Assembly (NCBI GenBank): GCA_965228005.1
Contig: CBDDGV010000003.1
Coordinates: forward strand, 828,244 to 892,243
Reading direction: 5' to 3'
Length of the DNA stretch: 64,000 bases
Origin: Lacipirellulaceae bacterium
Lineage (GTDB): Bacteria > Planctomycetota > Planctomycetia > Pirellulales > Lacipirellulaceae
Shown here one piece after another: positions 9,789-49,529 of the stretch. The translations under genes were made by a program, and so were the position numbers. Positions within the stretch are counted from its first letter, which is position 1. Each line of letters starts with the position of its first letter. The notes below the pieces were generated by a model, which worked only from the letters and a program-made list of their open reading frames with translations, searched no databases and was not told where the DNA came from.

Positions 9789-9982
9789 ACCGACTCGCCG
9801 AGAGCCTTGCTCCTCAGCAATTCCCGAGGAATACGGGCATCTTAGGGCTTAGATGTACCATTGCAAGACATCTCATTTGATTGCAGAGTTTCTCGGGAAA
9901 TAGCGGTATAGGGTTGAGCGACTAGTCGCGCAACACAGTAACAAAACGGTAGTGCTCTGAGGCGGTTGGCCCAAAGAAGAAC

Positions 9983-10433
9983 CGGAGCCCGAGATCGCTC
10001 CCGGGCCCCGGCGTCGTCAACAACAAGAACGGCCTACAGCAGGTTGACCACACGGTCGGCGAGGCCCTTCTCGCCGAGCACGACGTTGAGCTTGCCGCTC
10101 GTGGCGACCTTCTCCAGGACCTCCAGTTCCCGGAGACGCATCAGCGTCGTGTTGTCGGCGAGCAGGCGGGCCGTGTTGGCCTGCGACCGCATCGCGGCCG
10201 TCTCCTCGCGTCGGGCGATCAGGTTGGCCTCGGCGGCCTTCTTGGCCTCCGTGACGCGGTTGAGCAGGACCTTCATGTCGCCCGGCAGGATCACGTCCTT
10301 GACGCCCACCGAAACGACTTCCAGACCCAGCTCACCCGACCGACGACGGACCGACTCGGCGAACTCGTCCGTGACGGCGTCCTTGTCCGTCAGGAACGCG
10401 TCCAGGTCGCGCGTCGCCACGACCGCACGCAGA
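9983..10433 (-). pseudogene. Truncated duplicate of the 3' end of the SPFH/band-7 gene (98% identical to 31385-31853)
   Basis: ORF 10034..10420 translates to the last 128 aa of the 31448..32596 protein. The nucleotide repeat begins at agaaccggagcccgagatcgc at both loci. No N-terminal part is present. Confidence 0.7.
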
Positions 10434-10783
10434 GCCAGCTGAGTGGCCCGTCTCCGAGGGGTTTCAGCTGTTCCACTACTCTGCGTCTACGCATCTGATC
10501 CGTAAGGCGACTGGTCATTCGGAGATGCGATACCTACTGTGATGACTGGTCGAGTATGTGTGGGCAGATCGGTAGTTGCTGCAGAGCGGCACCGGCTGTA
10601 ACGACTCCTCCCTCTCTGGCGGGTCCGAGGCACTCGACGATTGGCCACATTCTTCTGCAATGGTTCGCGTCCTCGATTCAACCGCTTTCAATTCATCGAG
10701 ACCGCCAGAGACAGCTACTACTAGTAGCATTGAAATCAAACAAAGACGCGGCACAAGATGCAAGGAGAGAGGCGTGGATTCGA

Positions 10784-30805: not shown

Positions 30806-31447
30806 GTACCCGCGTTGAGGGGATAGGAGCCGCTTGTGACGAAGCCGCTAAGGGGCGCTGCCGACGGCTGTTCGGCCTACAAGTCCGCCTAGGTAATCCC
30901 AGAGAATCCAGAAGAGAGTCAGTAGAGAATATGAAGAGAGTCTATGAGAATTACTCGAAGTGCTCCGGCATCTCCTAATTCGGGGCCATTCTCGCCGGCC
31001 CCGCCACCAACCCGGGGCGCCACGGTGTCCGGTTCTTCTCGCATCATGGATGGCTCAAGCACCCGACCCTCTCGCTTCTTGCGGTAAGCCACTTATGAAG
31101 TACTGTGGCTCGAGCCACCATGCTGGGACGATGTCCCGCTGAAGCCTTCCGCAAGCAACCACATGCGGAGCAGAGAATTGGAGAGAAATAGCCACAGCGG
31201 CGAAGAATTGATCGCTTCCTTCCGGAAACGCTCTGCAGGACTCCGTCGTCGGCACAAGTGTTAGGGATCGTAGGAGCCTATAGAATTGACATGGACGGCG
31301 CCCCCGCCTTTTCTACTGATAGACTGTCCGGGACGGGCCGCGCAGTGGGAAGGCCGTCGTTTCCCCGTTTCGTTCATCAACGGAGAGCGAAAGAACCGGA
31401 GCCCGAGATCGCTCCCGGGCCCCGGCGTCGTCAACAACAAGAACGGC

Positions 31448-32596
31448 CTACAGCAGGTTGACCACACGGTCGGCGAGGCCCTTCTCGCCGAGCACGACGT
31501 TGAGCTTGCCGCTCGTGGCGACCTTCTCCAGGACCTCAAGTTCCCGGAGACGCATCAGCGTCGTGTTGTCGGCGAGCAGGCGGGCCGTGTTGGCCTGCGA
31601 CCGCATCGCGGCCGTCTCCTCGCGTCGGGCGATCAGGTTCGCCTCGGCGGCCTTCTTGGCCTCCGTCACTCGGTTGAGCAGGACCTTCATGTCGCCCGGC
31701 AGGATCACGTCCTTGACGCCCACCGAAACGACTTCCAGACCCAGCTCACCCGACCGGCGACGGACCGACTCGGCGAACTCGTCCGTGACGGCGTCCTTGT
31801 CCGTCAGGAACGCGTCCAGGTCGCGCGTCGCCACGACCGCACGCAGAGCCAGCTGCGCCTCGCGGTACAGCGACTGCTTCGCGCCGTCGGCCACGGTGAC
31901 CGCCTGCCGCGCGTCGACCACGCGGTAGGTAACCACGGCGTTCATCCGCAGCGTGACCTTGTCGGCGGTCATGATTTCCTGACCGGCGACATCGAGGGTC
32001 TGCTCACGGAGGTCGACCTCGACCACCTTCGCGTCGGCTGTGCGCCGCCAGTACGCGTACTGGCCCGGCGGCAGCGTCTCGACGAAGCTGCCGTCGTAGA
32101 ACACGACGCCGACCGAGTTCCGCGCAACCGTGCAGATGTCGAGCACCTGCGAGGCGTACGGGCTGCCGAGCACACGGTTGAGGTCCTTGTGACGGAAGCG
32201 GACCTCGCCGGCGTCGACGACCTCGACACGCACGTCCTTCTCGCCGGTCCAGTACGCGTACAGGCCCGGCGGCAGGATGTGGCTGAAGCGGCCCTCGATC
32301 CAGACCAGGCCGCGGTCGTTGTCCTTGAGGTCCACGACCACCGCCTCGCCTTCCAGGGCGCCGCTCTTCACGATCGCCTCGAGTTCGTCGTGCGCCAGCC
32401 AAGGGTCGCGACGCGACACGACATCGACCCGCACCTTCCACGACGGGGCCTTCAGCCAGTGCCGCCCGCGGGTGAGCAGGCCCTGGAACTCGCCGTCTCG
32501 GAAGTAGAGGCCTACTTCGTAGCTACGAATCTTGACTCGCTTGTAAAACGTCATGGGAGGCCTCCTTTCTGTGGCCAAGGGGTTGGGTGCACTCAA
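31448..32596 (-). CDS. SPFH/band-7 (HflC/stomatin-like) family protein
   Basis: 382 aa with an SPFH-like central region. N-terminal repeated GxYAYW motifs. The 3' 400 nt are duplicated at 9983-10433. Confidence 0.7.
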   Translation of the reverse strand: MSAPNPLATERRPPMTFYKRVKIRSYEVGLYFRDGEFQGLLTRGRHWLKAPSWKVRVDVVSRRDPWLAHDELEAIVKSGALEGEAVVVDLKDNDRGLVWIEGRFSHILPPGLYAYWTGEKDVRVEVVDAGEVRFRHKDLNRVLGSPYASQVLDICTVARNSVGVVFYDGSFVETLPPGQYAYWRRTADAKVVEVDLREQTLDVAGQEIMTADKVTLRMNAVVTYRVVDARQAVTVADGAKQSLYREAQLALRAVVATRDLDAFLTDKDAVTDEFAESVRRRSGELGLEVVSVGVKDVILPGDMKVLLNRVTEAKKAAEANLIARREETAAMRSQANTARLLADNTTLMRLRELEVLEKVATSGKLNVVLGEKGLADRVVNLL

Positions 32597-32996: not shown

Positions 32997-33071
32997 TGGT
33001 GGGGGGTGCGGGAGTCGAACCCGCGACAGCCAGATTAACAGTCTGGTGCTCTACCACTGAGCTAACCTGGT
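32997..33071 (-). tRNA. tRNA-Asn(GTT)-like with encoded CCA; acceptor strands not complementary, likely a pseudogene
   Basis: Perfect T-arm gcggg/cccgc, D-arm gctc..gagc and AC loop ctgttaa. The 5' acceptor accaggt cannot pair with 3' acccccc. Confidence 0.4.
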
Positions 33072-33193
33072 GGCGATCTGACGTTGGCCATCCTAGAACC
33101 CATGCACGGAACACGCCCGCCCAACCGAACCAAGCGGGGACGGACGCGCCGCTGGCCCGGCACGTCAAAACCTTGCTTGTAGATCGTTCTAAG

Positions 33194-33265
33194 AGACGCC
33201 GGTGGGAGTCGAACCCACTTCAAACCGGGTTGCAGCCGGTTGCCTCGCCGTCGGGCTCCAGCGTC
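33194..33265 (-). tRNA. tRNA-Cys(GCA)
   Basis: AC arm accgg-ctgcaac-ccggt. U73 discriminator. 7-bp acceptor with one G-U pair. 3-bp D-stem. Confidence 0.6.
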
Positions 33266-33288
33266 TTCGTTGTCACTGAAAGTGTCAG

Positions 33289-33360
33289 CAGCCTGTCCAG
33301 GAGTTGAACCTGATCCTCGACCTTCGCAGGGTCGCGTGCGATCCGCCACACCCACAGGCT
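33289..33360 (-). tRNA. tRNA-Arg(GCG)
   Basis: AC arm cgacc-ctgcgaa-ggtcg. Acceptor agcctgt/acaggct perfect. Confidence 0.6.
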
Positions 33361-33364
33361 GTAG

Positions 33365-33437
33365 TACCTCGCCAGGGAATCGAACCCCGTCTTGCAGATT
33401 CGAAGTCTGCCGTGCTCGTCCGTCACACTCGCAAGGC
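33365..33437 (-). tRNA. tRNA-Arg(TCG)
   Basis: AC arm gcaga-cttcgaa-tctgc. D-stem gtgt/gcac. Confidence 0.6.
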
Positions 33438-33469
33438 GTCGTAGCCCGTCCAGGAATCGAGGGGCTGGT

Positions 33470-33530
33470 CAACTCTACCGCGTGCCGCCTTCATCCTCCC
33501 TCGCCGGTCGGCGGCGTCACTTGCTTCCAA
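33470..33530. repeat. Conserved ~60-nt element, copy A (second copy at 37262-37316)
   Basis: ctaccgcgtgYcgcct...tcctccctNNccggtcggcggcgWcacttgctYcc is shared by both loci. Contains the hairpin cgccg-gtcgg-cggcg. Not foldable as a tRNA. Confidence 0.5.
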
Positions 33531-33580
33531 CAGCTTCGGAAGCTGACATGCGCTCCGGCACACCCACGGGCCGTACTCAG

Positions 33581-33652
33581 CATCTCGACCTGGGGTCGAA
33601 CCAGGACCTGGGCTTTAGGAGAGCCCCGTGCGGTCCATTACACTATCGAGAT
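33581..33652 (-). tRNA. tRNA-Arg(CCT)
   Basis: AC arm gggct-ctcctaa-agccc. Acceptor perfect. Confidence 0.6.
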
Positions 33653-33656
33653 GTGG

Positions 33657-33730
33657 GGCCGACGGCTGGATTCGCACCAGCATGATCCGGTTTACAAGAC
33701 CGGCGCCTTTCTAGGTCGAGCCACGTCGGC
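33657..33730 (-). tRNA. tRNA-Thr(TGT)
   Basis: AC arm ccggt-cttgtaa-accgg. T-loop variant tgcgaat. Confidence 0.55.
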
Positions 33731-33734
33731 ACAG

Positions 33735-33803
33735 CAGGAGTGCAAGGAATCGAACCCTGCTCGGCGGTTTTGGAGGCCGCTTGCTTCCCAGAAGCACACT
33801 CCT
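33735..33803 (-). tRNA. tRNA-Trp(CCA) with an unusually short D-arm
   Basis: AC loop ctccaaa. Acceptor aggagtg/cactcct perfect. D region is only 16 nt. Confidence 0.5.
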
Positions 33804-33813
33804 GTAGTTCGAG

Positions 33814-33887
33814 GGCATCCGGAGGGATTCGAACCCTCACTTCCTGCTTCACAGGCAGGCGTGCGTACCGTGTACACCTCGGACACC
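33814..33887 (-). tRNA. tRNA-His(GTG) with encoded G-1
   Basis: AC arm cctgc-ctgtgaa-gcagg. Extra 5' G opposite C73, as expected for bacterial tRNA-His. Confidence 0.65.
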
Positions 33888-33921
33888 ATAAGTTGGGCCG
33901 CCGTCGCCGACGGCCCAACAG

Positions 33922-34722
33922 TCAGTCGATGAACGCCACGTGCCGCATGGCCGCCGAGTCGGTCTCGGTGTTCAACAGCACCTGACGCCACTCCTTCAGC
34001 ACGATCGTCTTGTGATCGGCGTGCCGTACCTTGCCGCGTACGAAGACCAGAGGGTTCCGCTTCTGGGTGACCCAGTGCAGGTTCCGCATCTTCGGCCGAC
34101 GGCTGATCAGCTGACGGTACTGCTCGACGGTCAAGCCGTTCGGACGCGCGTTGCTGACGTAGACGGTCTCGCCGCCCTGACGCACCAACTCGTCGACCAT
34201 GTGCGGCTTGCCGCCGCCGCGGATCAGCGGCTCGTTCCGCAGGATCAGCCTCTCGTCGACCCGCACCCACCGTGGGACCGGGACGAAGAACCACTCACCC
34301 TGGCGGACGAACGCCTCGTTGCGACGGCGGTTCCGCTTCCTCCGCTTGACCTTCAGCTCGTCCTGCCGACGCCGGACCGGCAGCGGCTTCAACGCCTCCA
34401 TCGCCGTAATGACATTGGAGGCGCCCGCCCGCTCCGGCACCGCGGCGACGAACCAGTGACGCTCGTCGTGGCCGCATAGGAACTTGTGCTTCCCGTCCGA
34501 ATCACGGGACATCAGCAGCAAGTGCCGCTCCCGCGGCCGCGTATCGACGACCTGCAGCTCCCGCTCACGACCGGGCAGGACCGAAACGCCGAAGAACTCG
34601 CCCTCGGCGTCCGACCCGATGTCGATCGATACGCTGCTCTGCAGCCGCCTCGATACGCTAACGTCAACCTTGGCACGCGCGCCGATCTTGGCGAAGTGCC
34701 GCTCAATCAAGTGCGCGTTCAT
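33922..34722 (-). CDS. hypothetical protein embedded in the tRNA array (267 aa, basic K/R-rich centre)
   Basis: ORF on the same strand as the tRNAs, with no overlap of neighbouring tRNAs when started at MNAHLIERHF. Contains FLCGHDERHWFVAAVPE and KVKRRKRNRRRNEAF. No family recognised. Confidence 0.5.
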   Translation of the reverse strand: MNAHLIERHFAKIGARAKVDVSVSRRLQSSVSIDIGSDAEGEFFGVSVLPGRERELQVVDTRPRERHLLLMSRDSDGKHKFLCGHDERHWFVAAVPERAGASNVITAMEALKPLPVRRRQDELKVKRRKRNRRRNEAFVRQGEWFFVPVPRWVRVDERLILRNEPLIRGGGKPHMVDELVRQGGETVYVSNARPNGLTVEQYRQLISRRPKMRNLHWVTQKRNPLVFVRGKVRHADHKTIVLKEWRQVLLNTETDSAAMRHVAFID

Positions 34723-34757
34723 AGGAACGTCCTCCAGGAAACAGAAAACAAAACCAG

Positions 34758-34842
34758 CGGAAGGAGAGGGAGTCGAACCCTCAAGGCAGTGAAGCTCCAC
34801 CGGCTTCCAACCGGGTCCCGTCGCCCATCGGGTAGCCCTTCC
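34758..34842 (-). tRNA. tRNA-Ser(GGA), type II
   Basis: 85 nt. AC loop ttggaag. Long variable arm. G73. Confidence 0.55.
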
Positions 34843-34850
34843 GTACCCAG

Positions 34851-34940
34851 TAGCCCGACCAGGATTCGAACCTGGCCCCGTCACTCAGCAAACGCGGCTC
34901 GTTAGAAGCGAGGGATGATCGTCCGTTTCACCATCGAGCC
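34851..34940 (-). tRNA. type II (long variable arm) tRNA with apparent anticodon TCT; identity ambiguous
   Basis: 90 nt, A73, 21-nt variable arm. AC loop cttctaa closed by a 4-bp stem plus a C-C mismatch. Confidence 0.4.
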
Positions 34941-34963
34941 AAACTCTTTTTTGCAAACGCAAG

Positions 34964-35053
34964 CGGAAGGCATGGGATTCGAACCCACATGCCGCGAGTG
35001 AGGCGGCTCCGCATTAGCAGTGCGGCCCGGCGAGCCGTATCCGGCTGCCTTCC
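34964..35053 (-). tRNA. tRNA-Ser(GCT), type II
   Basis: 90 nt. AC arm ccgca-ctgctaa-tgcgg. G73. Acceptor perfect. Confidence 0.6.
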
Positions 35054-35061
35054 GTGTTTAG

Positions 35062-35150
35062 TGGACCCACTGGGAATCGAACCCACCGCGTTCCCCTAAG
35101 GACGTAGGCCGACCTGCCGAGCCGGTGTCGTCCCGTTGGACCATGAGCCC
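35062..35150 (-). tRNA. type II tRNA-like gene, anticodon unresolved (Leu-like D-arm)
   Basis: 89 nt. Acceptor pairs with G-U wobbles. D-arm resembles tRNA-Leu. AC loop tcggcag has no U33. Confidence 0.35.
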
Positions 35151-35161
35151 TCGTGTGGAGT

Positions 35162-35234
35162 GGACCGGAAGGGAATCGAACCCTTCGCACCGACTTTGCA
35201 AGAGTCAGTCGCCCCCTTGGAACATGCCAGCCCA
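35162..35234 (-). tRNA. tRNA-Ala(TGC)
   Basis: G3:U70 in the acceptor. AC loop cttgcaa. A73. D-arm non-canonical. Confidence 0.55.
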
Positions 35235-35243
35235 TTCTCTGAG

Positions 35244-35314
35244 AGGTCCGTCCGGGAATTGAACCCGGTCCTCGTCCTTACCACGGACGCGTGCGGCCGA
35301 AACACTTACAGACC
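35244..35314 (-). tRNA. tRNA-Thr(GGT)
   Basis: AC arm cgtcc-gtggtaa-ggacg. Confidence 0.55.
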
Positions 35315-35320
35315 ATCGAG

Positions 35321-35393
35321 TGATCCCGGATGGAATCGAACCATCTATCTCCTGGGTGTCATCCAGGCGTCGTAGCCGTTGGACCACGGGATC
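35321..35393 (-). tRNA. tRNA-Val(GAC)
   Basis: AC arm cctgg-atgacac-ccagg. Acceptor perfect. Confidence 0.55.
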
Positions 35394-35398
35394 GTCAG

Positions 35399-35474
35399 TG
35401 ACCAGGGTGGGAGTCGAACCCACAAAATCACCAGGCTCTCGACCTGGTCGCTTTGCCAGTTTGCGTACCCAATC
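35399..35474 (-). tRNA. tRNA with Leu-type anticodon GAG on a short-variable-arm scaffold (atypical)
   Basis: AC arm ccagg-tcgagag-cctgg. 7-nt variable region. D-arm ta-cgc-aaactggcaa-agcg. A73. Confidence 0.35.
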
Positions 35475-35482
35475 ATGGGAAG

Positions 35483-35550
35483 TAGCGGGTCCGGGAGTCG
35501 CACCCGACGGTCCAGGCTTATGAGGCCCGGCTGAGCCTGGCTCACCCGCA
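35483..35550 (-). tRNA. tRNA-Met(CAT)-like with 1:72 mismatch and aberrant D-arm
   Basis: AC arm cgggc-ctcataa-gcctg. U1-U72 unpaired. D region is only ~14 nt. Confidence 0.35.
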
Positions 35551-35557
35551 TCAGCAG

Positions 35558-35658
35558 TAGCCAAGGGGCCGCGTATTCAGGGAAACGGGGCGAACTCCCA
35601 CGCCACAAGTGGCACGACATTCTGAGTGTCGCGTGTCTACCTGTTCCACCACTTGGCT
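35558..35658 (-). tRNA. tRNA-Leu(CAG)-like, type II, atypical T region
   Basis: AC arm cgaca-ctcagaa-tgtcg. Variable hairpin gccac-aa-gtggc. Leu-like D-arm tg-gtg-gaacaggtaga-cac. Acceptor agccaag/cttggct. Confidence 0.4.
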
Positions 35659-35665
35659 GTATCAG

Positions 35666-35736
35666 TAGCCCGTACGGGAATCGAACCCGTGCCGCGAGTT
35701 TGAGGGACTCGCATCCTGCCGCTAGACCAACGGGCC
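35666..35736 (-). tRNA. tRNA-Glu(CTC)
   Basis: Glu-like D-arm tg-gtc-tagcggcagga. AC loop ccctcaa with C33. Confidence 0.5.
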
Positions 35737-35749
35737 TCTCTCGTGTCAG

Positions 35750-35831
35750 TGCGCCGGGCAGGAGTTGAACCTGCACAGCCCGAAGGCGGGTGGGTTACAG
35801 CCACTGGGGCTCGCCGATGCCCAGCCGACGC
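35750..35831 (-). tRNA. tRNA-Tyr(GTA), type II
   Basis: 82 nt. AC loop ctgtaac. D-stem gggc/gccc. Long variable region. Confidence 0.55.
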
Positions 35832-35846
35832 ATGAGTTGTTGCCAG

Positions 35847-35923
35847 TAGCACGGGTGGGAGTCGAACCCACAAACTGTCACGAAGGTTTGAGCTTCGTCG
35901 CTTTGCCGTTTGCGTACCGTGCC
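35847..35923 (-). tRNA. tRNA with Leu-type anticodon CAA on a short-variable-arm scaffold (atypical)
   Basis: AC arm cgaag-ctcaaac-cttcg. 9-nt variable region. A73. Confidence 0.4.
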
Positions 35924-35931
35924 GGATCGAG

Positions 35932-36006
35932 CGTCCCCGGCGGGATTTGAACCCGCGTCCTCCACCGTGACAGGGTGGCGAGCACTCCAGGCTGCTCCAC
36001 GAGGAC
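35932..36006 (-). tRNA. tRNA-Asp(GTC)
   Basis: AC arm ccacc-ctgtcac-ggtgg. G73. D-stem gagc/gctc. Confidence 0.6.
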
Positions 36007-36014
36007 CTGTTGAG

Positions 36015-36088
36015 TGGCTCAGGTGGGATTCGAACCCACAGCATCCTCGGGTTTAAGCCAAGGTGGTCTGCCGATTGCCTACCGAGCC
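36015..36088 (-). tRNA. tRNA with Leu-type anticodon TAA on a 74-nt type I scaffold (atypical)
   Basis: AC arm cttgg-cttaaac-ccgag. 6-nt variable region. A73. Confidence 0.4.
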
Positions 36089-36109
36089 GCCCGTTCACTT
36101 GCTTGTGAG

Positions 36110-36182
36110 TACCCAAAGCAGGATTCGAACCTGCAAACACCTGATCCTAAGTCAGGCCGCTCAGCCGTTGGCGTATCTGGGC
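36110..36182 (-). tRNA. tRNA with Leu-type anticodon TAG on a 73-nt type I scaffold (atypical)
   Basis: AC arm cctga-cttagga-tcagg. 5-nt variable region. A73. Confidence 0.4.
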
Positions 36183-36194
36183 ATCGCATCGAAG

Positions 36195-36267
36195 TAGTCC
36201 TGGGTGGACTCGAACCACCGATCTTCTTCTTGTAAGGAAGCCGCCTTTGCCGCTAGGCCACAGGACT
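36195..36267 (-). tRNA. tRNA-Val(TAC)
   Basis: AC loop cttacaa. Acceptor agtcctg/caggact perfect. D-stem gcct/aggc. Confidence 0.55.
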
Positions 36268-36366
36268 GAAAACCACAGTGCTTTAGCAAAAGTTGACCTA
36301 CTCGCATTTGCTTGCTAACCTTTGCTGGGCGCAGCGGAACAGTACTTGGAAACAGCGGTCGAGCCA

Positions 36367-37044
36367 ATGAAACGCTACCTACTTCTGTTCATATTCACCT
36401 CTCAATCAGTTTGTTTTTCTAGCAGTCTGATACTTGACCAATCGTTTGAATGGGAATCACCAGCACACTATGGTGGTTTCGGTTCAGCCTCCATGGGAAA
36501 AAGGCAAGCCCAAACCTTTACAGTTGGAGTTACAGGATCATTGCGTCGCATTGAGATTGCTGTTCGTCCGGAAGGCGAGCGTGAAGAAATGAACACAGAT
36601 CAAATTGAAATCTTTCTTGTGCAAACGGTGTCTGGATTACCAAACCTAAACCCGGCTAGTATGTTGGCATCAAGTTCAGAAACCATTCCGACTCCGGGTT
36701 CAGTACTCGTCCAGGGTGGGGAAAACAATAGGTTCCAGGACTTCCATTGGGCACAGTTCGACCTACCTCCAACAAGTGTGGTGTCTGGCGAACTCCTTGC
36801 AATCGTCTTGTCTACCGAAATCAATCATGGGTATCATTGGGCAGCAAGTTTTCCCGGATCATATTTATACGGTCGTGGGCTAAGAGGCTCTTCGGAAGGT
36901 ATATATGCTGAACCTCCGATTAACTTTCAGCATCGCGACTGGTTGTTTCGAACCTATGTCGTTCCGATTCCAGAGCCATCAGGAGCGCTATTGCTGGCTT
37001 TGGGAACAATTACTTTATGCGCCATCAGGAAGCGCCGAAGTTGA
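36367..37044 (+). CDS. PEP-CTERM protein, low-GC (foreign-looking) gene inside the tRNA array
   Basis: MKRYLLLFIFTSQSVCFSS signal. Ends VPIPEPSGALLLALGTITLCAIRKRRS. Coding sequence is AT-rich relative to the ~65% GC surroundings. Opposite strand to the tRNAs. Confidence 0.55.
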   Translation: MKRYLLLFIFTSQSVCFSSSLILDQSFEWESPAHYGGFGSASMGKRQAQTFTVGVTGSLRRIEIAVRPEGEREEMNTDQIEIFLVQTVSGLPNLNPASMLASSSETIPTPGSVLVQGGENNRFQDFHWAQFDLPPTSVVSGELLAIVLSTEINHGYHWAASFPGSYLYGRGLRGSSEGIYAEPPINFQHRDWLFRTYVVPIPEPSGALLLALGTITLCAIRKRRS

Positions 37045-37060
37045 TTCGATTTCTAGGGAA

Positions 37061-37122
37061 CTGCGGGGGTTGGAATCGAACCAATCCCAGCGCGCCCCGT
37101 CCTACCGTTGAACGACCCCGCA
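37061..37122 (-). tRNA. truncated tRNA-like gene lacking an anticodon arm (pseudogene)
   Basis: Perfect 7-bp acceptor tgcgggg/ccccgca, D-arm and T-arm present. Only 12 nt sit in place of anticodon arm plus variable region. Confidence 0.4.
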
Positions 37123-37140
37123 TAAGTTATCTCCCTCTAG

Positions 37141-37215
37141 TTCCGGGGGTAGGAATCGAACCTACGGACTCCTGGTTCAAAGCCAGGCAACACTACCAGC
37201 AGCGTCGACCCCGGA
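37141..37215 (-). tRNA. tRNA-Gln(TTG)
   Basis: AC arm cctgg-ctttgaa-ccagg. Acceptor perfect. Confidence 0.55.
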
Positions 37216-37261
37216 ATGCTTCCATCAAGAGAGTGCCCTGCGGGAGTCGGCCGCTCCACGA

Positions 37262-37316
37262 AGGACTACCGCGTGTCGCCTCGCTCCTCCCTACCGGTCG
37301 GCGGCGACACTTGCTC
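37262..37316. repeat. Conserved ~60-nt element, copy B (see 33470-33530)
   Basis: ctaccgcgtgtcgcctcgctcctccctaccggtcggcggcgacacttgctccc. Confidence 0.5.
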
Positions 37317-37425
37317 CCGCCTCGCCTGGTTGGAAGCCCGGAGCCTCTGCCGCTCGGCCAACGGAAGCAACCGAGCACGGCTGACTCAACGTCAGCCGAG
37401 CGCAGGGCGGTAGCTCTCAGAAAAG

Positions 37426-37513
37426 CGGAAGGAGTGAGAGTCGAACTCACAAGGCGCGCGTGGCGCTCGACTGCTTTCGAGGCAGCTGCCATCGCCCATT
37501 GGCTTGCCCTTCC
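37426..37513 (-). tRNA. type II tRNA-like gene with Ser(GGA)-like acceptor and abnormal (6- or 8-nt) anticodon loop
   Basis: Acceptor ggaagga/cccttcc identical to the tRNA-Ser(GGA) at 34758. Anticodon hairpin ctcga-aagcag-tcgag. Confidence 0.35.
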
Positions 37514-37521
37514 GTTTGGAG

Positions 37522-37593
37522 CACCGGTGGGAGGACTCGAACCTCCACTCGTCGGCTTAACAGGCCGCCGCCTTACCGTTTGGCCACACCGGT
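37522..37593 (-). tRNA. tRNA-Asn(GTT)
   Basis: AC loop ctgttaa. Acceptor accggtg/caccggt perfect. Confidence 0.55.
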
Positions 37594-37602
37594 TCATGTG
37601 AG

Positions 37603-37676
37603 TCAGGACGGCTGGATTCGAACCAGCGGTCTCGTGCGCCCGAGGCACGCGGAATACCAGGCTTTCCCACGCCCTG
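37603..37676 (-). tRNA. tRNA-Pro(CGG)
   Basis: AC arm cgtgc-ctcgggc-gcacg. D-stem ggaa/ttcc. Confidence 0.55.
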
Positions 37677-37683
37677 AATCGAA

Positions 37684-37754
37684 TGCGCCCAGCCGGAATC
37701 GAACCGACACACCCTGCATGGCGAGCAGGAAGGCTGCCACTACATCATGGGCGC
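37684..37754 (-). tRNA. tRNA-Gly(GCC)? (C33 in loop)
   Basis: AC arm cctgc-tcgccat-gcagg. Acceptor gcgccca/tgggcgc perfect. Confidence 0.4.
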
Positions 37755-37807
37755 AAAACAATGCGAATTAAGTTGTCAAAGAACGCGGAACGACCGGCCG
37801 TTCCGAG

Positions 37808-37879
37808 AGCACCGGGAGGGATTCGAACCCACGTAGCCGCTGTACGAGAGCGGAGTCTTTGCCTCTAGACGACCAGTGC
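37808..37879 (-). tRNA. tRNA-Thr(CGT)
   Basis: AC arm ccgct-ctcgtac-agcgg. Confidence 0.55.
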
Positions 37880-37889
37880 TTGTTGTCAG

Positions 37890-37962
37890 TGGGACCAGAG
37901 GGACTCGAACCCTCACCCGCCTGGGTAAGAACCAGGGATGCTGCCGCTAACACCTCAGTCCC
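37890..37962 (-). tRNA. tRNA-Lys(CTT)
   Basis: AC arm cctgg-ttcttac-ccagg. Confidence 0.55.
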
Positions 37963-37977
37963 AAAACCGTCTCGCAG

Positions 37978-38050
37978 TTGGCGCGGGAGGAATTGAACCC
38001 CCGACCCACGACTTATAAGGTCGTCGCTCTCACCACTGAGCTACGCGCCA
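37978..38050 (-). tRNA. tRNA(TAT), AUA-decoding tRNA-Ile2-like
   Basis: Fully canonical cloverleaf. Acceptor tggcgcg/cgcgcca. D-arm ta-gctc-agtggtga-gagc. AC arm acgac-cttataa-gtcgt with U33 and A37. Confidence 0.6.
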
Positions 38051-38069
38051 TGAAAGGGGGCGCAAGCAG

Positions 38070-38141
38070 TGGGGCCGGAGGGATTCGAACCCTCACCGTG
38101 CGGATTAAAAGTCCGTCGTGCAGCCGTTACACCACAGCCCC
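38070..38141 (-). tRNA. tRNA-Lys(TTT)
   Basis: AC loop cttttaa. Acceptor pairs with one G-U. Confidence 0.55.
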
Positions 38142-38223
38142 GAGGTCTGGGTTGGGCGTATCGGTTTGCGTCGGCGGACAGTCGACATCGTGTTGCTCCT
38201 AGTGGTTCGCGAAGTGCCGTGAG

Positions 38224-38295
38224 TGGTAGTCCTGGGAATCGAACTCAGCGCCGCGGTCTTATCAGGACCACTTGGGCAACCAGCCCTCGACTACC
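38224..38295 (-). tRNA. tRNA-Ile(GAT) (array copy, distinct from the chromosomal copy at 49397)
   Basis: AC loop ctgataa. Acceptor ggtagtc/gactacc perfect. Confidence 0.55.
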
Positions 38296-38299
38296 GTGA

Positions 38300-38392
38300 G
38301 TCGGGCGCCTCGGGGTCGAACCGCCGTGTCCCTTAGCAAACGGGGCTCCTGCTCCCAAAAGCAGGCGTGCTCCCATCTGCACCTCCGCCCGG
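38300..38392 (-). tRNA. type II tRNA-like gene with an 8-nt anticodon loop ttttggga (Pro UGG-like plus one U)
   Basis: AC arm cctgc-ttttggga-gcagg. Long variable hairpin. Weak T-stem. Confidence 0.3.
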
Positions 38393-38401
38393 TGTTTTCA
38401 G

Positions 38402-38475
38402 TCAGAACGGTCGGATTCGAACCGACGGCCTCTTGGCCCCCAGCCAAGCGCGATACCTAGCTTCGCCACGTTCTG
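38402..38475 (-). tRNA. tRNA-Pro(GGG)
   Basis: AC arm cttgg-ctggggg-ccaag. Acceptor cagaacg/cgttctg perfect. Confidence 0.55.
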
Positions 38476-38484
38476 ATTGGTCAG

Positions 38485-38556
38485 CACCCCGTGAGGGAAT
38501 CGAACCCTCATCTGCGGATTGAAAGCCCGCCATCCTCGCCGTTAGACCAACGGGGC
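38485..38556 (-). tRNA. tRNA-Glu(TTC)
   Basis: AC loop ctttcaa. Glu-like D-arm tg-gtc-taacggcgagg. Confidence 0.55.
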
Positions 38557-38610
38557 GTGTCGTGTCTCCTTGTGCGCGCACCGGGTGCGCACGGTGTCTC
38601 TGAAACCCAG

Positions 38611-38682
38611 TGGGCCGGGAGGCGCTCGAATCCTCGTCTGCGGTTCTTCAGACCGCCGCTATACCGTCTCAGCTACCAGCCC
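38611..38682 (-). tRNA. tRNA-Phe(GAA)
   Basis: AC arm gcggt-ctgaaga-accgc. D-stem gctg/tagc. Confidence 0.55.
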
Positions 38683-38721
38683 TAATGGTCGTGGGGTCGG
38701 CCTCTTCGATCGGCAGGAGCC

Positions 38722-38759
38722 AAAGAAAAAGGCCCGGCGTCTGTCTGACACCGGGCCTT
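38722..38759 (-). terminator. intrinsic terminator-like hairpin for minus-strand transcripts arriving from the NUDIX gene
   Basis: ggcccgg...ccgggcc stem followed, on the minus strand, by TTTTTCT. Confidence 0.35.
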
Positions 38760-39054
38760 GTGGCTCATCAAAGAGTCCAGCCGAGTGTCATGTGCGCCTT
38801 GGTTCGCAGGCGGGCGCGTACCCAGGCTTATCGTTCGCCGGTTGGGCGAGCGGCAAGCCGGCGGTATTCGCCGTATGCGATGAGCGTATGAAACTCAGCT
38901 GTAACATGGTTCCGTCTCCGGAGAGGGTTGCTTCTTTTCAACTCTACCCGCTTTTCACGCCGCGGGTCGCGTCTAGGTAACTATAGACGACATAAACCGG
39001 GTCAGGTTCACAGGCTTTCTTGGAAAAAACCACAAATCCGTTTTGGCTCGGAAC

Positions 39055-39483
39055 TCAGCCGCCGCAGTCGGTCTGCAGTGCGCCGAGAAGTGCGTCCAGA
39101 ATCTCGGCCAACGACGGAGCCAAGAGTTGTCTGGCTTCTTCGAAGCCGACGACCAGGCGCTCTCGAGTTGCTTGCTCCTCCCACTCCTCGAGCAGGCTCT
39201 CCACGGCGAGAGGGTAGATGTCGATGCGTGCGAGGCCGCCCCATTTCTCCTGCTCGTAAGTCCCGAGTGCCTCTCCGGTGATCCGTCCGACGACGCCCGC
39301 CTCTTCCTGGGCTTCTTTCACCGCGGTTGATTCCGGCGTCTCCCCGGGGTCGATCACCCCCTTCGGGAAAATCCACTTCCCCGATGACCTGGACGTGATG
39401 AGGACAATCTCCAGCCCAACGCCGTCCTGCAGGTACGGCAGACCCCCGGCCTGACGGAACAAGAAGTCCGGTTTCTTCGCCAA
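39055..39483 (-). CDS. NUDIX hydrolase
   Basis: Nudix box GKWIFPKGVIDPGETPESTAVKEAQEEAGV. Confidence 0.75.
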   Translation of the reverse strand: MAKKPDFLFRQAGGLPYLQDGVGLEIVLITSRSSGKWIFPKGVIDPGETPESTAVKEAQEEAGVVGRITGEALGTYEQEKWGGLARIDIYPLAVESLLEEWEEQATRERLVVGFEEARQLLAPSLAEILDALLGALQTDCGG

Positions 39484-39726
39484 ATCGAGTCCTCCTGAAG
39501 TTGGGAACGATTTGCAAGCTTCTCGAACAGTTTAGAGGCAATACCAACGCTGTCACTGACCAACAGGCACATTGGTAGATCTCCGACGAGGACTTCGAGA
39601 AGGACTCAACAGACCGCTGCCAACCGCGTAGCAGCAGGCAGCCAGTTGGGCTCGCATAGCAAAGGAGGGCGAGCGTGCACGAGAGCCGACGAGCCCTGTC
39701 TAGCCGGCCGAAGAGGAGAGATTCAG

Positions 39727-39800
39727 TGGGCGACACTGGATTCGAACCAGTGACCTCTGCGGTGTGAACACAGCGCTCTAACCAACTGAGCTAGCCGCCC
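39727..39800 (-). tRNA. tRNA-Val(CAC), intact; its 3' 42 nt are repeated at 9747-9788
   Basis: Canonical cloverleaf gggcggc-ta-gctcagttggttagagc-g-ctgtg-ttcacac-cgcag-aggtc-actgg-ttcgaat-ccagt-gtcgccc-a. Confidence 0.85.
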
Positions 39801-49396: not shown

Positions 49397-49470
49397 GGGC
49401 GTGTAGCTCAGTTGGTTAGAGCGCAGCCCTGATAAGGCTGAGGTCCCAAGTTCGAATCTTGGCACGCCCA
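49397..49470 (+). tRNA. tRNA-Ile(GAT), chromosomal copy
   Basis: gggcgtg-ta-gctcagttggttagagc-g-cagcc-ctgataa-ggctg-aggtc-ccaag-ttcgaat-cttgg-cacgccc-a. Confidence 0.85.
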
Positions 49471-49529
49471 CTCCTGTTTTCTGTCTCCTGTCTCCCGTCT
49501 CCTGGGGTCCGAAGCTCCCTCCGATTCGA

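Follow-up and report, generated by a model that had tools for sequence, protein, structure and literature searches.

A chromosomal tRNA gene array of a Lacipirellulaceae bacterium belongs to a lineage widespread in Planctomycetota and is probably maintained and switchable

Planctomycetes have been listed among the phyla with tRNA array units, the gene order of which is not common between phyla (Tran et al. 2016, PMC4758250), and among the phyla with long "L-arrays" (Santamaria-Gomez et al. 2021, PMC8421152). The L-array of Anabaena, plasmid-borne and 26 genes long, is silent by default and induced when translation is impaired (PMC8421152). In many Planctomycetes, "degenerate tRNA gene clusters" of 2 to 28 partly degraded genes have been reported (Kim et al. 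2016, PLoS One, PMC4807772, S2 text), in which Cove scores are low except for that of a canonical tRNA-Ile(UAU) that occurs only in such clusters. Here we describe an array of about 42 tRNA and tRNA-like genes in a 64,000-nucleotide stretch (64 kb; the window) of a Lacipirellulaceae bacterium (assembly GCA_965228005.1, contig CBDDGV010000003.1, positions 828,244 to 892,243 of the forward strand), together with the 266-residue protein encoded within it (ORF266). The anatomy of this array can be stated with high confidence, and taken as a whole the locus is, in our judgment, probably a chromosomal L-array of a lineage widespread in Planctomycetota, which forms a single minus-strand operon, is maintained, and would be switchable.

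ARAGORN called 39 tRNA genes in the window, 36 of which, many rather than a handful, were on the minus strand between 33193 and 38682, at a density of 6.6 genes/kb (36 genes in 5,490 bp). Hand reading and synteny with related arrays added six degenerate or atypical members, bringing the total to about 42, all on the minus strand (Table 1) and in agreement with the roughly 41 genes on one strand of the original prediction for this DNA. Twenty-six of the 36 ARAGORN calls scored at or above the gathering score of the Rfam tRNA model, the class-II members appeared as sub-threshold matches to the tRNA-Sec model at relaxed Rfam thresholds, and four calls (Ile-GAT at 38223, the 92-nt gene at 38300, Thr-GGT, and Ala-TGC) had no Rfam match at all. 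These four apart, array members reached 23 to 71 bits (Rfam); the canonical tRNAs of the window outside the array, Val-CAC (39726-39800) and Ile-GAT (49397-49471), reached 65.5 and 77 bits, respectively. The presence of these two canonical genes, and of an array Ile-GAT that, unlike its canonical counterpart, reached no Rfam score, supports the accessory nature that had been proposed for the array.

Nineteen amino acids were called directly by the tools and Met was represented only by an atypical CAT member (35483-35550), so that the predicted coverage of all 20 amino acids held for 19 and, for Met, through this gene only. The isoacceptor list that went with it was incomplete, as it had one Ser and one Ala gene too few and lacked two or three Arg genes and the four short Leu genes (TAG, TAA, CAA, and GAG). 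Among the Arg anticodons are GCG, TCG, and CCG, not ACG. Most spacers measure 3 to 25 nt, close to the packing of 5 to 25 nt first described, which did not extend to two larger gaps, filled by an 801-bp open reading frame (ORF; ORF266, 33922-34722, minus strand) and a 678-bp ORF (36367-37044, plus strand). CCA was encoded in none of the array genes, and in nearly all of them the discriminator base was followed by CU. The order of anticodons, as read from the gene order and not by a tandem-repeat tool, had no repeating unit. On the minus strand, the putative operon starts with an extracytoplasmic function (ECF)-type promoter-like motif (39009-38985), followed by a leader ORF (38907-38788), a terminator (38759-38722), about 34 tRNAs, ORF266 (34722-33922), about 8 tRNAs, a terminal tRNA-like element, and an SPFH (Band_7) gene. 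The NUDIX gene (39055-39483) and tRNA-Val-CAC lie upstream of the array, as had been stated.

The array falls within the definition of a tRNA array unit (at least 20 tRNA genes and at least 2 per kb; Tran et al. 2016, PMC4758250). It also has the single orientation, co-transcribable spacing, and non-periodic order of L-arrays, the ORF at 36367-37044 being the sole opposite-strand insertion, and it combines low-scoring members with a single canonical tRNA-Ile(UAU), as do degenerate clusters (Kim et al. 2016). Because it fits the latter description, with Ile(TAT) at 37977-38050 as its best scorer, the window array is a known kind of planctomycete locus, ordinary for the phylum. It is not an artefact.

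Related loci (designated by L numbers) were collected by a genome scan based on ORF266, which yielded 80 loci, and ARAGORN was run on all; counts of tRNAs refer to 83 non-redundant places and counts of motifs to 86 loci. Among the 83 non-redundant bacterial loci, same-strand tRNA adjoined ORF266 in 55, with at least 5 tRNAs in 43 and at least 20 in 27. The loci came mainly from Bythopirellula, Lacipirellula, Stieleria, Rhodopirellula, Novipirellula, Roseiconus, Bremerella, Schlesneria, and Maioricimonas, and further from Phycisphaerae, a few Verrucomicrobiota, and one Terriglobales metagenome-assembled genome; some of the loci labelled Verrucomicrobiota and Terriglobales have arrays as well. 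The fullest array (L020) has 42 genes in the order Phe Glu Pro Pro Ile Lys Ile(TAT) Lys Thr Gly Pro Asn Ser Gly Gln Gln Ser Val Leu Leu Asp Leu Tyr Glu Leu(CAG) Met Leu Val Thr Ala Ala Ser Arg(TCT) Ser(GGA) ORF266 His Trp Thr Arg Arg Arg Cys, which recurs elsewhere with omissions and local changes. In two further arrays (L014 and L021), Ile-TAT was again among the top scorers. Gene order was common to dozens of Pirellulales and Planctomycetales genomes. The view that such an array is unusual in a planctomycete was therefore not upheld, the phylum's arrays having been reported already (PMC4758250, PMC8421152, PMC4807772), and collapse of dispersed loci during assembly is excluded because the same order recurs in many independent assemblies, including complete genome or chromosome records (L028/L029, L037, L042, and L049). 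One genome has two arrays (L028 and L029), and some relatives have just 2 to 8 tRNAs beside ORF266.

Of the 663 stem positions (acceptor, anticodon, and T stems) of 39 anticodon families, 482 (73%) were changed on both sides, and 97.7% of the cells were paired, a value that is inflated because sets called by ARAGORN are biased to paired stems. In the short Leu-CAA, for which there were 27 counterparts in other arrays, compensatory changes were found in 16 of 21 pairs. Discriminator bases matched the isotype, with C73 in 31 of 34 His, G73 in 30 of 30 Asp, U73 in 27 of 28 Gly, U73 in 23 of 23 Cys, and G73 in 26 of 27 Trp genes, G73 in Ser and Asn, and A73 in Leu. In the window, His has retained G-1 opposite C73, and both Ala genes have G3:U70. 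To judge from the sequences, the combination of stem covariation, discriminators, G-1 in His, and G3:U70 in Ala is the signature of selection for charging, and it argues that most array tRNAs, which depart from the standard model, have been kept functional by selection and are not relics. A long variable arm is normal in bacterial tRNA-Leu. Four Leu genes of the window (TAG, 36109-36182; TAA, 36014-36088; CAA, 35846-35923; and GAG, 35398-35474) are only 74 to 78 nt, and in all arrays such genes have no long variable arm, while A73 is conserved and Leu-CAG stays class II. This short form was also found in about half of the viral loci, and these class-I-shaped genes raise the question of how they would be recognized by leucyl-tRNA synthetase.

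Several array members contain extra elements. Variable-arm hairpins of about 20 nt are found in the Pro(UGG)-slot gene (38300-38391), Arg-TCT (34850-34940), and Ala-GGC (35061-35150), and other arrays have a related insert (GACCAACGC..GCGUCGGUG) in their Pro-GGG, Arg-GCG, Ile-GAT, and His-GTG. About 50 nt in length, a structured element (AGCAAGUG.CGCCGCCGACCGG..GGGAGGA..GGCG.CACGCGGUAG) occurs twice in the window (33475-33525 and 37266-37315, minus strand) and also, always on the array strand, in L001, L005 (two copies), L010, L020 (two copies), L053, and L058; by eye, it has an 8-bp stem with compensatory changes between copies. Its hosts differ: the T-loop of Gly-TCC in the window and of Leu-GAG in L005, the region after the anticodon stem of Arg-CCG in the window, and the D region of a Ser-like gene in L001. 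Its identification as a known ribozyme or riboswitch was rejected, as there was no Rfam match and its folding energy was no better than that of shuffled sequence.

The terminal tRNA-like element (33005-33067, minus strand) has a canonical and highly conserved D arm, anticodon stem, and T arm, and it follows tRNA-Cys in seven other arrays, with a different anticodon loop each time (GTT, TTT, ATG, GTA, AAC, and others). It might be a processing or termination signal. This conserved position after tRNA-Cys led us to reject it as the attachment-site (att) remnant of an integrated element, and it was rejected as a YrlA Y RNA as well, since a 600-nt search gave no YrlA match even at E<=10 and the arm order of YrlA is permuted.

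The region upstream of tRNA-Phe was compared among arrays. In 19 aligned loci the terminator hairpin was paired in 98.4% of cells, with 6 of 13 pairs changed on both sides, values reached by no shuffle, and the same hairpin was found 40 to 110 nt before tRNA-Phe in about 20 other arrays. In every such locus, TGAC(A/G)C lies about 25 to 35 nt upstream of the hairpin, and its complement G(T/C)GTCA lies in the hairpin's 5' arm. The pairing of UGACAC with GUGUCA held in 97% of the cells over the 19 loci, versus 3 to 61% when the partner was slid, and in one locus (L017) all three strands had changed together. An open frame ended at the TGA of the putative anti-terminator in 20 of 20 loci, and the anti-terminator strand begins with this UGA. 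The peptides encoded by these frames share F[AG]xQPxN..Y..R[LM][LM]*, and their Phe, Gln, Asn, and Tyr codons differ at third positions. Farther upstream, GAACC-N15/16-CGTCT was present about 250 to 360 nt before tRNA-Phe in 16 of 23 arrays, at a fixed distance; over the 86 loci, 28 of 29 matches were on the array strand, and the sole match in the window was that at 39009-38985, where GAAC (-35) and CGTC (-10) lie about 16 nt apart, as in ECF promoters. No sigma-70-like promoter was found by a scan between the terminator and tRNA-Phe. Motif, leader, and terminator were conserved with the array and not with the upstream genes, which vary.

The simplest reading of this region, in which we have moderate confidence, is that of an ECF-type promoter feeding a ribosome-dependent attenuator. 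A ribosome translating the leader smoothly would reach the UGA and cover UGACAC, upon which the terminator would form and the array would stay silent. If translation were slowed, UGACAC would be uncovered and could pair with the GUGUCA that lies in the terminator's 5' arm, and RNA polymerase would read through, providing the cell with a reserve tRNA pool and the co-transcribed protein. We infer from the arrangement of these elements the use of the promoter, the direction of the switch, and the stress signal, and likewise the function of the array as a reserve tRNA set expressed when translation falters. Such an attenuator would fit the Anabaena L-array, silent until translation is impaired (PMC8421152). 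No paper linking tRNA arrays to leader-peptide attenuation was found in the literature searched.

Two observations concern variants of this region. In Planctomycetales loci with reduced arrays (L051, L052, L058, L064, and L066), GAACC-N15/16-CGTCT lies about 200 nt upstream of the ORF266 homologue and is followed by a ribosome-binding site (GAAAGGAGG) and an ORF of about 25 codons (MRH.CPTHHR.LN.PRGWS.VA..*), the UGA of which lies within the 5' arm of a hairpin, UGACGUG...CACGUC. In the window (38760-38784 and 38683-38721, minus strand), as in L001, L010, and L017, an extra conserved helix (CUCUUUGAUGAGCC ... GGCUC..AUCGAAGAG) surrounds the terminator and extends to just short of tRNA-Phe; it may be an added layer of the switch or a processing site.

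ORF266 lies 34 nt from a tRNA on each side in the window, and in relatives its start is usually 40 to 71 nt after Arg-TCT or Ser-GGA and its end usually 37 to 55 nt before His or Thr. Its homologues number more than 7,400 (64 to 78% identity among the best 120 listed), forming 2,049 clusters at 50% identity, all of about 265 amino acids (aa) and without fusions, with conserved residues that include KFLCGHDERHWF, RQGEWFF, and RH.DH.T. No match was obtained in Pfam, NCBIfam, PHROGs, PADLOC, or PDB sequences, and the predicted structure (predicted local distance difference test [pLDDT] score, 85.5) matched no known fold. Family members were present on 84 contigs catalogued in IMG/VR, many of 100 to 530 kb; 16 of 30 full-length relatives from that catalogue had 5 or more same-strand tRNAs around them, the flanking ones often just tens of nucleotides away, and in these loci short Leu tRNAs and the order Arg-CCT/CCG/TCG recur. 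In loci without arrays, no conserved neighbor of ORF266 was found. By its gene context, ORF266 is strongly tied to tRNA clusters in bacteria and on IMG/VR contigs, and a role in processing, repair, or binding of tRNA would be a guess.

Several points weigh against a maintained and switchable array and add to the bias in stem pairing mentioned above. Six members of the window array are damaged, a further three have odd inserts or an 8-nt anticodon loop, and because of these some decay is going on in the array; PMC4807772 treats such clusters as degraded and probably dispensable, with fast turnover. The anti-terminator strand barely varies, only 2 of its pairs covary, and 20 to 40 of 500 shuffles do as well, so that what speaks for the candidate anti-terminator is conservation and complementarity, and covariation is weak. 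A Shine-Dalgarno (SD)-like motif preceded the leader start in just 9 of 20 loci, and an ungapped count of codon positions in the leader gave no third-position excess, a count that is uninformative owing to indels. In the window alone the ECF-type motif is not significant (0.56 expected by chance). The nearest relatives of ORF266 (78% identity; Bythopirellula L007/L008) have no tRNAs nearby, and ORF266 for that reason does not strictly need an array.

The alternative that survives best, although we regard it as unlikely, is that the array was acquired horizontally long ago and is drifting to loss, that only tRNA-Ile(UAU) is useful, for AUA codons, and that no joint function links the other genes, the ORF, and the upstream hairpin. 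The low Cove scores, the canonical tRNA-UAU, and the fast turnover reported in PMC4807772 are in keeping with such decay, as are the six broken or inserted members of the window, the four ARAGORN calls without Rfam match, the foreign low-GC gene that takes the place of two slots, and the relatives that retain 2 to 8 tRNAs beside ORF266. However, order, compensatory pairing, and discriminators persist across orders in which ORF266 is just 55 to 65% identical, and neutral sequence would not keep them; the promoter motif, leader, and terminator are conserved with the array rather than with its changing upstream neighbors. A maintained array in which some members decay is the reading we prefer.

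We then considered the surroundings of the array. The genome has a GC content of about 65%, and that of the array is like its surroundings, except for the inserted PEP-CTERM gene. The genes around the array are of an ordinary chromosomal kind: TatA, tRNA-Val(CAC), and the NUDIX gene are found upstream, and the SPFH/Band_7 gene together with a DUF1559/N_methyl gene, a pairing typical of Planctomycetota, downstream; glycoside hydrolases, esterases, FecR, and ExbB/D lie further out. NUDIX, TatA, and DUF1559 were rejected as functional partners, as they had no counterpart in any related locus; that NUDIX and tRNA-Val adjoin the array is incidental. In 15 related loci Band_7 shares its strand with ORF266; it lies downstream in 14 of these, and in L002 it is within the array. 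Its synteny extends to Bythopirellula, Lacipirellula, and others, which points to long vertical descent as the probable history of the locus. The PEP-CTERM ORF (36367-37044, plus strand) stands where relatives have Gln-CTG and Ser-TGA, Gln-CTG being left as a stump (37061-37122), and because of its GC content of 50% it looks like a late insertion. A 465-bp direct repeat with 98.9% identity (9977-10441 and 31391-31855) brackets a 21-kb carbohydrate-utilisation block (GH95, GH43, SASA, CE2, DUF1559, and FecR); the second copy comprises the 3' end of Band_7 plus 57 nt and the first a truncated ORF for the C terminus of Band_7 (10034-10420), which suggests a duplication or insertion next to the array.

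That the array is still-mobile cargo, moved by an integrative element or a large phage, is a more doubtful alternative, which we hold to be quite improbable. Its presence is patchy, the closest Bythopirellula relatives lacking an array; there are two copies in one genome (L028/L029); the arrays of L002 and L005 have integrase/DnaB or Prim-Pol modules next to them; and ORF266 relatives with tRNA clusters occur on IMG/VR contigs, with the order Arg-CCT, Arg-CCG, Arg-TCG in common. However, a scan of 20 flanking ORFs of the window revealed no integrase, transposase, or phage domain, and ORF266 was absent by tblastn from 50,697 phage and 72,556 plasmid records, and current mobility, raised at the outset from arrays of other phyla, was not borne out. 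The GC content of the array, bar the PEP-CTERM gene, the synteny of Band_7, and the nature of the supposed att remnant as a conserved array member speak against it as well.

Many related loci have further partners. In 20 bacterial and 3 viral (IMG/VR) loci, a Ro60 (TROVE) gene comes after the array, and between tRNA-Cys and Ro60, one to three full-length YrlA-like matches per locus (E of 1e-10 to 1e-5, below the gathering score) were found on the same strand in L014 (12135-13238), L021 (11903-12978), and L058 (8443-8517); on one IMG/VR contig (L097), Ro60, Band_7, ORF266, and tRNAs occur together. In the window, Band_7 was present, no Ro60 was detected by tblastn, and there was no YrlA match. 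We consider it very improbable that the RNAs are mainly non-translational, serving as decoys or substrates for tRNA-targeting toxins or in Ro60/Y-RNA quality control with ORF266 acting on them. Ro60, the YrlA-like RNAs, the joint viral locus, and the non-standard arms or inserts of many members would agree with such a role, but the window has neither Ro60 nor YrlA, and the conserved discriminators, the G-1 of His, the G3:U70 of Ala, and a set of anticodons in which Met alone has no clear member point to selection for aminoacylation and decoding.

Table 1. Features of the array and its flanks in the window (positions are window coordinates; bits are Rfam model scores, except for TIGR02595)
Feature	Position	Strand	Evidence
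ECF-sigma-type promoter-like motif GAACC-N15-CGTCT, 46 nt downstream of NUDIX stop codon	38985..39009	-	Motif scan; function inferred
Leader ORF, 39 codons (MLQLSFIRSSHTANTAGLPLAQPANDKPGYAPACEPRRT*), GGAGA 7 nt before ATG	38788..38907	-	Conserved frame
Putative anti-terminator strand UGACAC, complementary to GUGUCA in terminator 5' arm	38785..38790	-	Pairing over 19 loci
Predicted intrinsic terminator, 13-bp GC-rich hairpin and U-tract, 39 nt upstream of tRNA-Phe	38722..38759	-	Pairing over 19 loci
tRNA-Phe(GAA), first array gene	38610..38682	-	ARAGORN; Rfam 57.0 bits
tRNA-Glu(TTC)	38484..38556	-	ARAGORN; Rfam 60.8 bits
tRNA-Pro(GGG)	38401..38475	-	ARAGORN; Rfam 62.5 bits
Atypical tRNA, Pro(UGG) slot; 8-nt anticodon loop (UUUUGGGA), 22-nt variable-arm hairpin	38300..38391	-	ARAGORN; no Rfam match; 74-nt Pro-TGG in relatives' slot
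tRNA-Ile(GAT), divergent	38223..38295	-	ARAGORN; no Rfam match even at E<=1
tRNA-Lys(TTT)	38069..38141	-	ARAGORN; Rfam 62.4 bits
tRNA-Ile(TAT), most canonical member	37977..38050	-	ARAGORN; Rfam 71.2 bits (array maximum)
tRNA-Lys(CTT)	37889..37962	-	ARAGORN; Rfam 45.8 bits
tRNA-Thr(CGT)	37807..37879	-	ARAGORN; Rfam 52.5 bits
tRNA-Gly(GCC)	37683..37755	-	ARAGORN; Rfam 47.9 bits
tRNA-Pro(CGG)	37602..37676	-	ARAGORN; Rfam 56.5 bits
tRNA-Asn(GTT)	37521..37593	-	ARAGORN; Rfam 66.4 bits
tRNA-Ser(CGA), class II	37425..37513	-	ARAGORN; tRNA-Sec model 37.8 bits
Gly(TCC)-like, 175 nt; D-region insert and 50-nt structured element in T-loop; probably inactive	37234..37408	-	By hand; Gly-TCC in relatives' slot
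tRNA-Gln(TTG)	37140..37215	-	ARAGORN; Rfam 35.5 bits
tRNA-Gln(CTG) stump, 62 nt, anticodon arm deleted	37061..37122	-	Compared with L001 Gln-CTG
225-aa ORF, low GC (50%), PEP-CTERM end	36367..37044	+	TIGR02595 18.1 bits vs cut-off 16
tRNA-Val(TAC)	36194..36267	-	ARAGORN; Rfam 62.5 bits
tRNA-Leu(TAG), 74 nt, without long variable arm	36109..36182	-	ARAGORN; Rfam 53.7 bits
tRNA-Leu(TAA), 75 nt, without long variable arm	36014..36088	-	ARAGORN; Rfam 43.2 bits
tRNA-Asp(GTC)	35931..36006	-	ARAGORN; Rfam 56.7 bits
tRNA-Leu(CAA), 78 nt, without long variable arm	35846..35923	-	ARAGORN; Rfam 49.1 bits
tRNA-Tyr(GTA), class II	35749..35831	-	ARAGORN; tRNA-Sec model 26.9 bits
tRNA-Glu(CTC)	35665..35736	-	ARAGORN; Rfam 57.0 bits
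Leu(CAG)-like, class II, T region disrupted/expanded	35558..35658	-	By hand; 85-nt Leu-CAG in relatives' slot
CAT tRNA, 68 nt, reduced D arm, U1/U72 mismatch	35483..35550	-	By hand; Met-CAT by ARAGORN in 11 other arrays; weak Tymo_tRNA-like match
tRNA-Leu(GAG), 77 nt, without long variable arm	35398..35474	-	ARAGORN; Rfam 39.8 bits
tRNA-Val(GAC)	35320..35393	-	ARAGORN; Rfam 57.6 bits
tRNA-Thr(GGT)	35243..35314	-	ARAGORN; no Rfam match
tRNA-Ala(TGC); G3:U70 if gene start is GGGCUGG	35160..35237	-	ARAGORN and by hand; no Rfam match
tRNA-Ala(GGC), 90 nt, G3:U70, extra variable-arm hairpin	35061..35150	-	ARAGORN; Rfam 27.6 bits, below gathering score
tRNA-Ser(GCT), class II	34963..35053	-	ARAGORN; tRNA-Sec model 37.6 bits
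tRNA-Arg(TCT), 91 nt, extra variable-arm hairpin	34850..34940	-	ARAGORN; Rfam 36.7 bits; counterparts elsewhere 73 nt
tRNA-Ser(GGA), class II, end 34 nt before ORF266 start	34757..34842	-	ARAGORN; tRNA-Sec model 30.0 bits
ORF266, conserved 266-aa protein, GGAGGA before ATG	33922..34722	-	ORF; homology searches
tRNA-His(GTG), G-1 (33887) opposite C73	33813..33886	-	ARAGORN; Rfam 51.3 bits
tRNA-Trp(CCA)	33734..33803	-	ARAGORN; Rfam 30.4 bits
tRNA-Thr(TGT)	33654..33730	-	ARAGORN; Rfam 47.2 bits
tRNA-Arg(CCT)	33580..33652	-	ARAGORN; Rfam 53.1 bits
Arg(CCG)-like, 131 nt, 51-nt structured element (33475-33525) after anticodon stem	33442..33572	-	By hand; Arg-CCG in relatives' slot
tRNA-Arg(TCG)	33364..33437	-	ARAGORN; Rfam 31.0 bits
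tRNA-Arg(GCG)	33288..33360	-	ARAGORN; Rfam 23.4 bits, below gathering score
tRNA-Cys(GCA), last regular tRNA	33193..33265	-	ARAGORN; Rfam 45.3 bits
Terminal Asn-like tRNA body, 3-bp acceptor stem, then ACCA	33005..33067	-	Rfam 57.3 bits over model positions 5-66
SPFH/Band_7 gene, downstream	31448..32596	-	Pfam 1.3e-29

To our knowledge, functional data on long bacterial tRNA arrays exist for the Anabaena array only. The lineage described here offers handles on the function of long arrays in its conserved candidate terminator switch, its maintained though seemingly "degraded" tRNAs, and its large family of tRNA-cluster proteins. Relative to the earlier reports that we searched, the maintenance of the tRNAs, the conserved candidate attenuator, the tRNA-cluster protein family, and the SPFH, YrlA, and Ro60 partners appear to be new. 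If the switch senses the speed of the ribosome, it would be the first leader-peptide attenuator known to us that controls tRNA genes and would provide a mechanism for calling up a reserve tRNA pool. More tentatively, and as a possibility on which we would not yet rely, the array may be the core of a conserved, stress-inducible operon for reserve translation and RNA care that is common to bacteria of the PVC group and large phages, in which an ECF-driven, ribosome-sensing attenuator would control a near-complete set of unorthodox but chargeable tRNAs, including class-I-shaped tRNA-Leu, together with a protein family of new fold acting on them and, in many genomes, SPFH, Y RNAs, and Ro60.

Compared with known systems, the window array most resembles the clusters of Kim et al. 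2016 (PMC4807772), which are from the same phylum, consist of dense low-scoring tRNAs with one canonical tRNA-Ile(UAU), and are duplicated in some genomes. Those clusters were described as having 2 to 28 genes, weak similarity, and disrupted synteny, whereas the window array has 36 to 42 genes in an order that recurs across orders; neither an embedded protein nor a leader, a terminator, or compensatory conservation was found to be mentioned in a search of the main text and supplements of PMC4807772. As in the array units of Acidithiobacillus integrative and conjugative elements (ICEs), Firmicutes, and Mycobacterium (PMC4758250), redundancy was added and not many new anticodons, but unlike the Acidithiobacillus arrays the array has no ICE context in the window. 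The tRNA clusters of large phages in IMG/VR share with it ORF266 relatives (26 to 51% identity) between tRNAs, the short Leu, the order Arg-CCT/CCG/TCG, and, in L097, Ro60 and Band_7; they differ in their wider spacing, the other ORFs in between, and a GC content of 27% to 66%, and their contigs are viral by catalogue. Relatives have YrlA-like RNAs and Ro60 after the array and in its orientation, as in the rsr-yrlBA-rtcBA Ro60/Y RNA loci (Chen et al. 2014, PMC4201824), in which a term search found no link to tRNA arrays; the window, in contrast, is without both, and the arm order of its terminal element is normal and not the permuted T-arm/stem/D-arm of YrlA.

The candidate switch resembles ribosome-dependent attenuators (the trp, his, and pheL leaders; bmrCD and mef/mel) in having a short ORF followed by mutually exclusive anti-terminator and terminator helices, with the leader stop codon within the strand that the ribosome would have to mask. 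It differs from them in that the leader lacks a run of same-amino-acid codons, no upstream partner (1:2 helix) was identified for the anti-terminator strand, and the genes that would be controlled are tRNAs. Finally, the array resembles the trn operon of Anabaena sp. PCC 7120 (PMC8421152; Puerto-Galan and Vioque 2012) insofar as it is a long, same-strand, non-periodic, and probably supernumerary array with an associated protein gene. It differs from that operon in being chromosomal, in having as its candidate switch a leader-peptide terminator behind an ECF-type motif, and in embedding a protein without recognisable family.

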